A stretch of DNA of 64,000 nt from Candidatus Hydrogenedentota bacterium (GCA_963745075.1 CAVUWV010000018.1:256001-320000), one strand, 5' to 3'. Positions 24,115-31,394 are shown, counted from the stretch's first letter. Numbers and translations: made by a program. Notes: generated by a model from the letters alone, not told the origin.

Positions 24115-24438
24115 CGTATACTCCGAGTCTTGAATGCGCTCCCCATGAGGACGAACGTCACAGCAATTCTCGCCATGCAAAAGCGCGCTAGTCCGCGTTT
24201 CTACCCGCCCCGGAAGTCGTCGTTTTGCCGACCGGTACCTTGGGCGCGGGGAGAAATGCTTTCGAGAAAAACCGAAGGCTTACAGTCGAGAAGTTCTCGC
24301 ACACACTCTATGAACCCAATAAGCTCGGACAGACACGCGAAGCTCCGGAAGCTTCGAGTTACAAATTCGACGTTTGGTGCGTGTGAGAATTCCCGGCTAG
24401 TGTAGCGGATCGCACGCAGCATTTAACAGAAAAATCCG

Positions 24439-24467
24439 TTGACAAACCCACGTCCCGAAGGTAGGTT
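24439..24467 (+). promoter_or_regulatory. Putative sigma70 promoter of the leader/DUF1559 unit
   Basis: TTGACA-N17-TAGGTT. Confidence 0.6.
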
Positions 24468-24564
24468 AAATGTATGGCGTTCGGTGATGGTTTTGTTCCA
24501 GGCGGAAAACATTTACCTACGCCAATACCGTGAGACCAAGGCGTTCTTGGGGAACCTCGATTTC

Positions 24565-24903
24565 ATGAATCGAAAATGGTTAAGACTCGGCGCGTGCGCC
24601 GCGCTGGTGCTTTTCGCGTGTGCGGAATTGCACACGGTGGTGCCGTTTGTCTTTTCCGAATTCCATCACGATAGCCCCGAAAACGCGCCATTCGACGGAT
24701 CGACCGGCAATGACTCCCGTCAGCCCTGTGCGCTGTGCCTGCTAATCCACTCGGCAACACTCGTCCCTTCTGCGGATGCTGTTCAAGGTCCGCCTGATGT
24801 CACCCCGGAACAACCCGTTCCAGAAGACAACGCCATCGTCTGGTGCGATACCTCCTGGAGACCCGAGTCCCGCCGGGGTCCTCCCTCCTTACACACTTCC
24901 TAA
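24565..24903 (+). CDS. DUF2946/CruR-like exported leader protein with CxxC and C-terminal RGPP motif
   Basis: 112 aa: basic/hydrophobic signal-like N-terminus, His residues, CALC (24727-24738), 45-aa Pro-rich spacer, RGPP (24874-24885), stop 5 codons later. Confidence 0.75.
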   Translation: MNRKWLRLGACAALVLFACAELHTVVPFVFSEFHHDSPENAPFDGSTGNDSRQPCALCLLIHSATLVPSADAVQGPPDVTPEQPVPEDNAIVWCDTSWRPESRRGPPSLHTS

Positions 24904-25002
24904 TCGCAGAACTCCCCGTGTGAATCGTCGAGCGTAAAGACGTTTATCGCTTACGCACGACGCCGTGTTGTGACGTGTGTAAACCAATAAGGAGTTATCC
25001 CT

Positions 25003-25908
25003 ATGCGTACCAAGGGTTTTACATTGATCGAACTGTTGGTGGTCATCGCCATCATTGGCATTCTCGCGGCAATCCTGCTCCCGGCGCTCGCACGGGCAAG
25101 GGAAGCAGCCCGTCGCGCGAGCTGCCAGAACAATCTGAAGCAAATGGGTCTCGTGTTGAAGATGTACAGCAACGAGAGCGCGGGGGAGAAATACCCTCCG
25201 ATGAAGTCCGTCGATTGCAACGGAAATCCGGCGCCGGGCGCCACGATATTCCGCGTGGAGTCCATGGATCCCGAGTATCTGACGGACCTGAATGTGCTGG
25301 TGTGCCCGAGTGCGTCTTCGGGCTCGACCGCCCTGGAACTTTGGGACCAAGGCGAAACAACGTCGACCCTGTGGGGCGGGAATGGCGCCATCGTTCAGCC
25401 CTTTGCGAACAACGGAATCGTTGAGCCGTGTGAAGTCTACGAACACCCTTATATCTACCTGGGCTGGGTGATTGAGAAACGGTTGTCCGCCGACCAGACC
25501 GCGCTGGACGCGTTGGCGGTCAACGTGGACGATCTGTTCGCCGCATTGAACACCACGGCCGCGGATGCGGAACAGGTCGCCGACAGCGACTGGGACGTCG
25601 TGGACGGAACCGGAAACGGCGGCGGCGACAAGATCAATCGGATGCGCGAGGGTATCGAGCGTTTCCTGATCACGGATATCAACAATCCGGCGGGAAGCGC
25701 GATGAGCCAAACCGAACTTCCGGTCATGTGGGACGAGATTTCCGGTGACAACGCAACACACTTCAACCACGTTCCCGGCGGCTGCAATGTGTTGTACATG
25801 GACGGCCACGTCAAGTTCTTGAAGTACGACGGCCCTTTCGGTTCGGACTTTCCGGTTAACGGCGGCGGCCTCGTGTTCCACGAGATGAGTCACCTCCTGT
25901 ACCCGTAA
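25003..25908 (+). CDS. DUF1559 prepilin-type N-terminal cleavage/methylation protein with H-X9-DG motif
   Basis: [73 protein letters not shown]. Confidence 0.93.
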
Positions 25909-25936
25909 GTCGTGTATTCGTAGGTTTTGCATGGAA

Positions 25937-25961
25937 GCGGGGCGGCCACGTGCCGCCCCGC
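25937..25961 (+). terminator. GC-rich hairpin after the DUF1559 gene
   Basis: GCGGGGCGGC-CACGT-GCCGCCCCGC perfect 10-bp stem; no U tract. Confidence 0.5.
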
Positions 25962-26104
25962 ACGTGATCCGCCGTCCGGTCGCAATTCTTGAGTGCTTCT
26001 GGTATAGTCGTGGGAGGCTGGAATTGGGTGTCACCGCTCAATCCACCTCGACTGCACGTCGCACGTGCGGTTCGATCAAGTATGGCTGTCCGGAGGTTAT
26101 CTCA

Positions 26105-30000: not shown

Positions 30001-31394
30001 ATGAGCGTGTTGACTCCACGACAAATCGTAGACGAACTCGACAAGTACATCATCGGACAACACAGTGCCAAGCGAAAGGTTGCCGTGGCGTTGCGCAACC
30101 GCTGGCGCAGGCAACAGTTATCCGACGAGATGCGCGACGAAGTCATGCCGAAGAACATCATCATGATCGGTCCGACCGGCGTTGGAAAGACGGAGATTGC
30201 ACGCCGTCTCGCCAAGCTCGCCGACGCGCCCTTCGTAAAGGTGGAAGCCTCCAAGTTCACGGAAGTGGGTTACGTGGGCCGGGACTGCGAGTCGATGATT
30301 CGAGAACTGACCGAGGTTGCCCTGTCCATGGTGCGCGGCGAGATGGAAAAGGAACTCGAAGAACCCGCCAAGCGAGCCGCAGAGAACCGGCTTCTGGATC
30401 TTCTGCTCCCCCCCAGTCCGCGCAACGCGGACCCGAACGGGTGTACCGGCCCGGCGATCCGAGAGCCGGCGATGAAGCTCCCGCACCGACGCAAGAAGAC
30501 CAAGGTGAGGCACGGACTCGCGAAATCCTGCGTAAGAAGCTCGAAGCCGGGGATTTGGACGATCGGCAGATCGAGGTCGACGTTCGGGAGGCCGGAAAAA
30601 CGTCCATGATGCAGGTATTCTCGAACTCGGGCCTGGAAGAAATGGGCGTCAACATTCAGGAAATGTTCGGGCGGCTCATGCCTCAAAAGACGAAGCGCCG
30701 CAAGACAACGGTCGCCGAGGCACGCAAACTGCTTGAAGCGGAAGAACTCGACAACCTCATCGACATGGATGTGGTCGTCAAGCGGGCGGTGGAGCGCACG
30801 GAAAACTCGGGCATCGTGTTCCTGGACGAGATCGACAAGATCGCGGGCCGGGGTTCCGGCGGCCACGGCCCGGATGTTTCGCGGGAAGGCGTGCAGCGCG
30901 ACATCCTGCCCATCGTCGAAGGCAGCACGGTCACAACCAAGTACGGGCCGGTGAAGACGGACCATATCCTGTTCATTGCGGCCGGCGCGTTTCATATGAC
31001 CAAGGTGTCCGATCTGATTCCCGAACTGCAGGGCCGCTTCCCGATTCGCGTGGAACTCGACAGTCTCTTGGCGGGCGATTTCGTCCGCATTCTGCGCGAG
31101 CCGAAGAACTCGCTGGTCAAACAATACGAAGCCATGCTGGCCACGGAAGGCATCACCCTCGATTTTACGGACGACGCCGTGGAAGCGATCGCCCGCATCG
31201 CGGAGCAGGCGAATCTCGAAACGGAGAATATCGGCGCGCGCCGCTTGCACACCATCATGGAGTATCTCCTCGAGGAGCTCTCTTTTGAAGCCCCCGAGTC
31301 GCAGGACGGCCCGGTGCGGCTCGATGCAAAGCTGGTTGAAGATCGTTTGAAAGAAATCATCGAGAATCGCGACCTCAGCAAATACATCATATGA
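30001..31394 (+). CDS. hslU: ATP-dependent protease ATPase subunit HslU, one-base frameshift near 30435
   Basis: [42 protein letters not shown]; second frame [44 protein letters not shown]. Confidence 0.95.

Follow-up and report, generated by a model that had tools for sequence, protein, structure and literature searches.

A conserved CruR-like leader ahead of a His-tailed DUF1559 pilin-like gene in Candidatus Hydrogenedentota: a candidate metal-released arrest peptide with zinc as the most likely metal

Introduction

In a 64,000-nucleotide stretch of a Candidatus Hydrogenedentota genome (GCA_963745075.1, CAVUWV010000018.1:256001-320000; here called the window), a small open reading frame with a CxxC motif and an RGPP motif near its stop codon precedes a gene for a prepilin-type DUF1559 protein. 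The locus raises the question of whether the small frame is a leader that controls its neighbor by stalling the ribosome and, if so, which signal it reads. A preliminary description proposed a metal sensor, perhaps for copper, that would give a metal-related role to one member of the DUF1559 family, in the place that a TonB receptor has in Proteobacteria. Genomes encode many DUF1559/H-X9-DG proteins (22 in this one), which have no known function and are rarely named in the full-text literature. The switch type itself is already known from CruR and CutF; RGPP and RAPP are demonstrated arrest cores, among which RGPP gives the most robust arrest, and CruR arrest has been obtained in vitro (PMC12992588).

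The leader gene and its surroundings

The 112-residue frame was found where it had been described, ends in TAA, carries RGPP five codons ahead of the stop (residues 104-107), and is separated from the DUF1559 gene by the 99 nt reported earlier (Table 1). Its signal-like N-terminus was recovered by hydropathy as a basic start followed by a hydrophobic stretch (19-residue Kyte-Doolittle maximum of 1.83) and is regarded as a candidate export signal. Histidines occupy residues 23, 34, 35, 62, and 110, and His23 (24631-24633), near the end of the hydrophobic segment, is shared by 90% or more of the 27 leaders that were aligned. The spacer from CALC to RGPP does have 45 residues; calling it Pro-rich overstates a Pro content that is just moderate (7 of 45). 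Among 282,980 stop-to-stop frames of the genome, 15 fit the pattern of CxxC followed by [RH][AGS]PP near the stop, and this is the only one that precedes a prepilin gene.

Table 1. Features of the leader-cargo unit, in coordinates of the window
Feature	Position	Strand	Basis or remark
Probable sigma-70-type promoter	24439..24467	+	-35 TTGACA 24439-24444, 17 nt, -10 TAGGTT 24462-24467
Leader ORF, 112 aa, putative divergent DUF2946/CruR-like arrest-peptide gene	24565..24903	+	Profile matches, alignment
Hydrophobic signal/anchor segment, residues ~7-31	24583..24657	+	Hydropathy
CxxC (CALC), Cys55/Cys58, candidate metal site	24727..24738	+	Invariant in 27-leader alignment
RGPP arrest motif (putative), Arg104-Pro107	24874..24885	+	R, P, P invariant in 27-leader alignment
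Anti-Shine-Dalgarno zone (predicted), last leader codons	24885..24899	+	CTCCTTA 24885-24891 complements cargo SD
Intergenic hairpin	24926..24962	+	Arms 24926-24937 and 24951-24962; predicted fold
Cargo Shine-Dalgarno (SD) TAAGGAG, 8 nt ahead of ATG	24988..24994	+	Predicted unpaired probability 0.19 in free mRNA
Cargo, 301-aa prepilin-type DUF1559/H-X9-DG protein of His-tailed clade	25003..25908	+	Profile searches
G+C-rich 10-bp hairpin after cargo	25937..25961	+	No U tract; z -2.5 for 25905-25990

The promoter TTGACA-N17-TAGGTT is present as described, and its layout makes it a probable sigma-70-type promoter. A consensus promoter scan did not pick it up (the -10 element matches 3 of 6 positions); a TTG(5 of 6)-N16-18-TAnnnT layout was found in 48 of 102 leader upstream regions compared with a mean of 2.8 in shuffles, and TTGACA-N18-TAGGGT occurs in two same-genus leader loci. 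Short inverted repeats at 24420-24427, 24461-24472, and 24512-24520, with arms of 8-9 bp that are 37-42 nt apart, flank and overlap the promoter and could be the operator of another regulator or chance. Hairpins in the same intergenic position are also seen by eye in relatives, where the sequence is not conserved, and the one described here may be a pause site or a spacer helix. The hairpin after the cargo is the probable end of a two-gene unit; no conserved gene follows the cargo among relatives. The unit is bordered by an opposite-strand glycosyltransferase-like gene on one side and an S41 peptidase gene on the other. Further along the window (30050-31394), an hslU-like gene seems split across two frames near 30441-30609 by a frameshift or a sequencing error.

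The relationship to DUF2946 suggested earlier holds in part. The layout is CruR-like and several relatives pass the Pfam threshold, but the leader itself scores 16.2 bits (E 0.018, profile positions 40-117), under the cut-off of 23.7 bits for PF11162. The cut-off is reached by 7 of 26 relatives, one of which is 43% identical to the leader, and by 8 of the best 40 among 150 listed profile matches; 23 of 27 leaders match DUF2946 at E<=1, far more than match any other family. No NCBIfam model was found for the leader. Its ESM Atlas neighbors form clusters mostly from Acidobacteriota and Gemmatimonadota, one of which has DUF2946 in 13% of its members. Because the score is under the Pfam cut-off, the leader is described as a divergent DUF2946 relative; the profile and alignment matches indicate that it is probably homologous to CruR/CutF-type leaders, though no formal member of DUF2946.

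Conservation and distribution of the leader

The cargo was searched for in 135 genomes of Candidatus Hydrogenedentota, and 29 best non-self loci were inspected. A CxxC..RxPP leader stands ahead of 26 of them, one has none, and two have too little upstream DNA, which bears out the expectation that CxxC-R[AG]PP frames would recur upstream of related DUF1559 genes (26 of 27 testable closest orthologues). The leader is thus conserved in front of orthologous genes, and the proposal withstands the objection of non-conservation. The 27 aligned leaders have a mean column identity of 26%, with CxxC, spacer length, and RxPP (together with His23) as the conserved elements.

A profile built from this alignment matches 117 places in 91 of the 135 genomes, and loci were retrieved for all places save four at contig edges. 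In the retrieved loci, 101 of 117 matches directly precede a prepilin gene. The remaining 16 comprise five first members of tandem leader pairs before a prepilin gene, one frameshifted leader that also precedes a prepilin gene, leaders ahead of other cargos (two CzcC-like, two ABC ATPase, and one each of catalase, hemA, and porin-like), and three unresolved cases. One of the two CzcC-like outer-membrane efflux genes was checked and belongs to a CusA/CzcA-family operon. Such other cargos are under-counted because the profile came from pilin-linked leaders. As a check on this bias, 60 listed cargo matches that the leader profile had not flagged were retrieved; among the 62 genes they hold, chosen on cargo similarity alone, 34 have a strict leader and 8 a variant (42 of 62 in total), 18 have none, and 2 are tandem or too near a contig end.

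The search for strict leaders allowed CxxC-RxPP spacers of 38-50 residues, and in the 122 loci recovered the in-frame pair is conserved at a fixed spacing of 42-47 residues in every case (mode 44). The motif is RGPP in 58, RAPP in 46, RDPP in 9, RSPP in 8, and RPPP in 1. Of the 122, 99 have two or more His within the 35 residues that lead up to CxxC; Met is scarce in these leaders, and the stretch from CxxC onward is hydrophobic in 69. An intact CxxC is absent, with one or both Cys missing, in 12 of 134 leaders, and some of these variants retain His while lacking a Cys. The leader is almost certainly a real conserved gene.

Several unusual arrangements were recorded. Variant leaders with GPFR instead of CxxC or with one Cys and a His run, in which the distance to RGPP/RAPP is unchanged, occur in L130, L136, L138, and L147 and in L140, L163, L167, L178, L184, L204, and L208; one heads hemA, and such Cys-poor forms may sense something else. 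Tandem pairs of complete CxxC-RxPP leaders before a single DUF1559 gene (L110, L116, L127, L131, L134) might work as gates with two inputs. In L213 (G101:C8), a single 7-2-7 operator (described below) lies in the promoter region common to two divergent leader-cargo units. Leaders stand before a catalase (L117), an ABC ATPase with an FtsX-like permease (L083, L084), and a porin-like gene (L141), and L103 has an ABC ATPase of this type after a cargo. In L077 (G092:C22), the CxxC and the RGPP of one leader fall in different frames; this leader precedes a His-tailed cargo and is followed by an intact second pair.

The His-tailed DUF1559 cargo

The identification of the cargo as a prepilin-type DUF1559 gene was upheld by Pfam DUF1559 (57.2 bits, cut-off 23.3), N_methyl (33.7 bits), and TIGR04294 (29.9 bits, cut-off 19). 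Its closest relatives are mostly from Candidatus Hydrogenedentota, both in database records and in the nearest Atlas clusters. An AlphaFold2 model (pLDDT 83.8) has an N-terminal helix of about 50 residues (8-58), and each of its 20 top structural matches is a type IV pilin or a pseudopilin, with weak scores (Z up to 4.1, rmsd 3.7-3.9, 104-121 aligned residues); a Foldseek search of the model against the PDB gave nothing at E<=0.001. Seven PilB/GspE/PilT-like ATPase motifs are found in the genome.

The leader accompanies one part of the family. In this genome, it stands ahead of 2 of the 22 DUF1559/H-X9-DG genes, the second pair (L150, G000:C8 ~69795-71235) having CAFC, 44 residues, RDPP, a longer gap, and a cargo that ends in a His/Met-rich tail. 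A tree of 179 cargos places most leaders in one clade of 148 (FastTree support 0.90), with 11 scattered among other paralogues; among 40 further genes, leaders precede 5 of 8 in the His-motif group and 2 of 28 testable ones beyond it. Leaders thus mark one His-tailed clade and a few scattered others and not DUF1559 in general. Of 134 cargos with a leader, 111 have at least two His residues in the last 15 positions, as do 16 of 41 without one and 2 of 20 leaderless paralogues of this genome. The residues specific to the clade are Cys72, Cys143, Glu144, His253, His293, Glu294, and His297, in a comparison that is partly circular because the group was defined by its C-terminal His motif; five close leaderless relatives are also changed at His293 or Glu294. 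The chance that the cargo handles metal is judged to be about even.

Coupling of the leader end to cargo translation

The last leader codons can pair with the cargo SD as given in Table 1 and also, through 24889-24899, with 24972-24982. Intergenic regions of relatives align too poorly for column-wise covariation, so a duplex swap test was used, in which duplex energies with the own and with other cargos' SD were compared after removal of row and column effects in 84 de-duplicated loci (of 117). A 24-nt window from Arg+6 pairs 2.0 kcal/mol better with the SD region of its own cargo than with others (p<0.0002; permutation sd 0.22; 0 of 5000 permutations as low), and control windows at Arg-50, -30, +24, and +36 give 0.04, 0.01, 0.27, and 0.08 kcal/mol. 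The cognate excess spans Arg+0 to +36 over the 84 loci and is weaker at the 24565-24903 locus alone. The same peak was obtained after window shuffling; a wider control window has a small effect (-0.56, p 0.03), so that composition explains a minor part of the pairing. The first Pro codon of RxPP is CCT in 49 of 122 leaders vs. 12% of cargo Pro codons.

With a ribosome of usual footprint size holding the RxPP Pro codons in its P and A sites, the stretch under the ribosome would be the anti-SD zone; a second anti-SD-like stretch near 24910 falls outside the footprint. This stall position follows the toeprints of CruR (PMC12992588). A stalled ribosome increases the modelled mean SD accessibility from 0.24 to 0.39 across 101 loci whose gaps do not exceed 200 nt, with a gain above 0.2 in 40 and a drop in 2; the opening is modest at the 24565-24903 locus (0.19 to 0.34), and single-sequence folding of 24850-25030 has no significance (z -1.4). 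Since the codons at the leader end pair with the ribosome-binding site (RBS) of their own cargo, stalling should open translation. The leader very probably controls the cargo by stalling, and the anti-SD is fairly likely to be the main route of control.

G is scarce in the 20 nt that follow the leader stop (0.14 vs. 0.29), and no more than two G are present there in 59 of 122 leaders vs. 91 of 2064 controls. A rho gene is encoded in the genome (696.8 bits). The G-poor zone and the presence of rho suggest that termination of the CruR type may add to SD control; we infer that stalling means cargo on, whether by SD opening or by a block to Rho.

Operators and regulators in leader promoters

Two palindromes, TGATAAT-NN-ATTATCA (7-2-7) and GTAWTAC-N3-GTAWTAC, emerged from a de novo motif search of the 102 leader upstream regions that de-duplication left of 115, and they overlap the -10 region in several leader loci. 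A 7-1-7 Fur-box seed was tried and gave a far poorer fit than 7-2-7. The 7-2-7 box also separates znuA-like operons from a divergent Fur-family gene that is accompanied by a ZntA-like ATPase, and the second box precedes znuA-like operons headed by a gene of about 90 codons for a ribbon-helix-helix (RHH) protein with a Cys/His zinc ribbon, a candidate non-Zur zinc repressor (L338:1572-1847 (+), L339, L340, L251, L352, L357-L359, L361, L363, and L365). Its RHH and zinc-ribbon matches are weak and all below cut-off, no Pfam or NCBIfam model scores above cut-off for it, and no literature on such a regulator was found. The binding proteins are called ZnuA-like for their best NCBIfam matches, AztC and ZnuA, which are all below cut-off, and for a His-rich loop motif. 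The Zur label is assigned by gene position, as practised in earlier work (PMC545781).

Matrices trained on the leader boxes match 11 of 19 znuA-type loci and none of 13 loci of the Mn type, against a background of 16 among 597 random genes; one intermediate locus, kept out of the comparison, is also negative. In the reverse direction, matrices trained solely on znuA-locus sites gave scores of 13 bits or more for 31 of the 102 leader promoters; such scores were reached by 3 of 41 promoters without a leader, by 12 of 800 random ones, and by a mean of 5.7 in shuffles. Box type tracks the regulator: all 12 second-type boxes lie in genomes with the RHH gene, which is found in 31 of 135 genomes, and all 19 first-type boxes lie in genomes without an RHH match. 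Kinship among genomes inflates this agreement, but both operator types are present in the family to which the source genome belongs, and three RHH-gene genomes that are 96-97% complete gave no Fur-family match. For one genome that is 95% complete and carries the 7-2-7 box, a search with the Pfam Fur model was empty and tblastn gave a Fur-like match at the znuA locus.

As predicted sites, these operators place the leader-cargo unit of roughly one relative in three in the zinc-starvation response; they bear on transcription, and the ligand of the peptide is a separate matter. The leader promoter described here has neither operator (6.9 and 1.0 bits; threshold 13), nor do the same-genus leader loci, and 71 of 102 leader promoters are without one; genome-wide operator matches in the source genome form no clear regulon. 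In contig C7 of this genome (G000:C7 ~2118-2183, L250), all that is seen of a zur-like gene is its last ~22 codons, flanked by znuA and by a ZntA-like ATPase with a likewise broken frame, through decay or through an error in the assembly, which is 90% complete. Another contig, G000:C36, has A+T-rich stretches, Bacteroidota-looking genes (by eye), and one of two TonB-receptor matches; it is possibly foreign to the bin and was excluded from the background samples.

Copper, the metal proposed in the preliminary description, fares less well: znuABC-type operators stand in leader promoters of about a third of relatives, which points to zinc starvation rather than copper, and no copper chaperone, oxidase, or CopA-type gene was found among the 14 non-pilin cargos or the 23 downstream neighbors scanned. 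The signal is probably a metal. Zinc is favored because the leader-cargo unit of relatives is also under a zinc-uptake repressor, and we give it an even chance of being that metal.

Proposed mechanism and alternative explanations

The reading preferred here, with a probability of roughly 0.6, is that the leader is a cis-acting arrest peptide of the CruR/CutF type that is released by a metal, most likely zinc, and turns its cargo on in starvation. The ribosome would pause at RGPP, as the motif suggests, with the His/CxxC site, some 45 residues away, just beyond the exit tunnel. The paused ribosome would mask the last leader codons, which otherwise would pair with the cargo RBS, a pairing supported by covariation, so that cargo translation would be on; the G-poor tract would also be masked, and Rho perhaps blocked. 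Metal bound at CxxC/His would end the pause, the helix would re-form, and the cargo would go off, if the polarity is as proposed; a leader of an efflux operon would require the opposite polarity. The cargo would be a membrane-anchored pseudopilin-like protein whose His-rich tail probably captures scarce metal.

A copper ligand, either with the cargo off in copper as in CruR or on in copper as in CutF, is improbable. It would leave the zinc operators as a separate transcriptional layer, which agrees with their absence from the 24565-24903 locus, and CxxC, a spacer of 42-47 residues, and RAPP reproduce the layout of CruR, whose copper response needs CxxC (PMC9426467), while CusC/CzcC-type cargos are common among CutF-like leaders (PMC9973294). 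Against it stand the lack of copper-specific genes among cargos and neighbors noted above, the match of the operators to znuA-type loci, and the His-rich, Met-poor leaders, variants of which lose a Cys yet keep His. Monitoring of export or of oxidative folding is unlikelier still. In that case, pulling by Sec/YidC or a disulfide in CxxC would free the stall as in SecM, ApdA, or ApdP, and the hydrophobic N-terminal segment, the second hydrophobic stretch in 69 of 122 leaders, the Cys72/Cys143 pair of the cargo clade, the 12 leaders without an intact CxxC, and the dsbA and sec genes known as RAPP/RGPP cargos (PMC12992588) would all fit. No sec, yidC, or dsb cargo occurs among the 117 matches, however, and the conserved His cluster, the zinc-regulon operators, and the His-rich cargo tails argue for a metal.

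The output of the switch may also be viewed differently. Rho-dependent termination as the main output, with the stalled ribosome covering a C-rich, G-poor rut site and SD pairing being secondary, would be CruR-like and in line with the G-poor 20 nt past the stop, the hairpin that follows, and the rho gene; it is nevertheless rather doubtful, because the skew is limited to about Arg-50 to stop+20 and the swap and shuffle tests indicate cognate-specific pairing that does not arise from composition alone. The SD and Rho routes can coexist. It is very improbable that the leader works in trans, supplying metal to the cargo as a chaperone in the membrane, with RGPP being incidental. A predicted exported, His/Cys-rich protein co-transcribed with the cargo and sometimes found in tandem would suit this role, but protein conservation is restricted to CxxC, spacer length, and RxPP, nucleotide pairing with the cargo SD covaries, and RAPP/RGPP is counter-selected in ordinary proteins (PMC12992588).

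A metal-released, SD-opening leader remains the preferred reading, and a bolder extension of it is offered tentatively: the leader would be a zinc-sensing arrest peptide, the His-tailed clade would be zinc-scavenging pseudopilins that use a pilus or type II secretion system for capture, the unit would have stayed in the zinc-starvation regulon as its repressor was swapped from Zur to the RHH zinc-ribbon protein, and the leader would perhaps be the sole zinc control here, as only a zur-like remnant was seen in the source genome. TonB receptors are few, with 0-2 matches in each of five genomes.

Significance

New here are the phylum-wide survey, the anti-SD swap test, and the operator switch that follows the regulator. 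The leader and two independent operator systems single out one clade of a family without known function, and give experiments two points of entry, zinc starvation as the condition and metal binding by the His tail as the property; for the leader, E. coli or the PURE system would serve without growth of the source organism. If the proposal is true, metal sensing by arrest peptides would extend from copper to zinc, and a CruR sensor would be joined to CutF-like SD control.

No report of a leader-DUF1559 pairing was found in the literature covered, and no zinc-sensing ribosome-arrest peptide is described in it. A DUF1559 or prepilin cargo is absent from the text and supplements of PMC9426467 and from the readable parts, figures excepted, of PMC12992588 and PMC9973294; a DUF1559 class may be listed in Fig. 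4 of PMC12992588, and a PILIN class appears in the Fig. 7B legend of PMC9973294.

Comparison with known systems

In the RAPP/RGPP group of ApdA, ApdP, SecM variants, and the Streptomyces SLIV leaders, a C-terminal RGPP stands in a small exported frame upstream of a regulated gene, the layout proposed here; the cargos named in the available text are sec, TonB, YcnI, PCuAC, PepSY, and DsbA, and the DUF1559/pilin cargo of the present unit is not named there (PMC12992588). In Caulobacter, CC2720, a DUF2946 protein, heads the Zur-activated czrCBA-zntA operon (PMC4176598); standing first behind a Zur operator, it sets a precedent for DUF2946 in a zinc regulon. Its cargo is an efflux system and Zur is an activator there, whereas the cargo here is pilin-like and the boxes found in relatives overlap the -10 region in several loci, a repressor position.

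CutF-cutO of Rhodobacter capsulatus (PMC9973294; bioRxiv 10.1101/2025.02.05.636593) resembles the present unit in its gap near 100 nt; its leader is exported and contains Cys, as is predicted for the present one, and on stalling melts a structure hiding the next SD, as the present one would. CutF carries CxxxC and PPP, stalls with copper, and serves a detoxifying multicopper oxidase; here the motifs are CxxC and RGPP, the cargo is a DUF1559 protein, the anti-SD lies inside the last leader codons, and the polarity would be on in starvation.

The closest likeness is to CruR (Bp2923)-bfrG of Bordetella pertussis, the prototype of DUF2946/PF11162 (PMC9426467). Both leaders have an export-like N-terminus, a CxxC, about 45 residues (CxxC-RAPP spacing of 45 in CruR), a RAPP-type motif just before the stop, a position as first gene of the unit, a long gap, and a C-rich, G-poor tract at the leader end, and in both a stall would turn the downstream gene on. 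DUF2946/CruR leaders are recognized by copper-homeostasis genes downstream; the present leader is first in its unit, but no copper-specific cargo occurs among the 14 others. The CruR cargo is a TonB receptor, in contrast to the prepilin-type protein here, and the leaders described here differ further in that RGPP is commoner than RAPP, a covarying anti-SD would act instead of, or beside, Rho, the context points to zinc, the Pfam score is below cut-off, and the host belongs to a different phylum.
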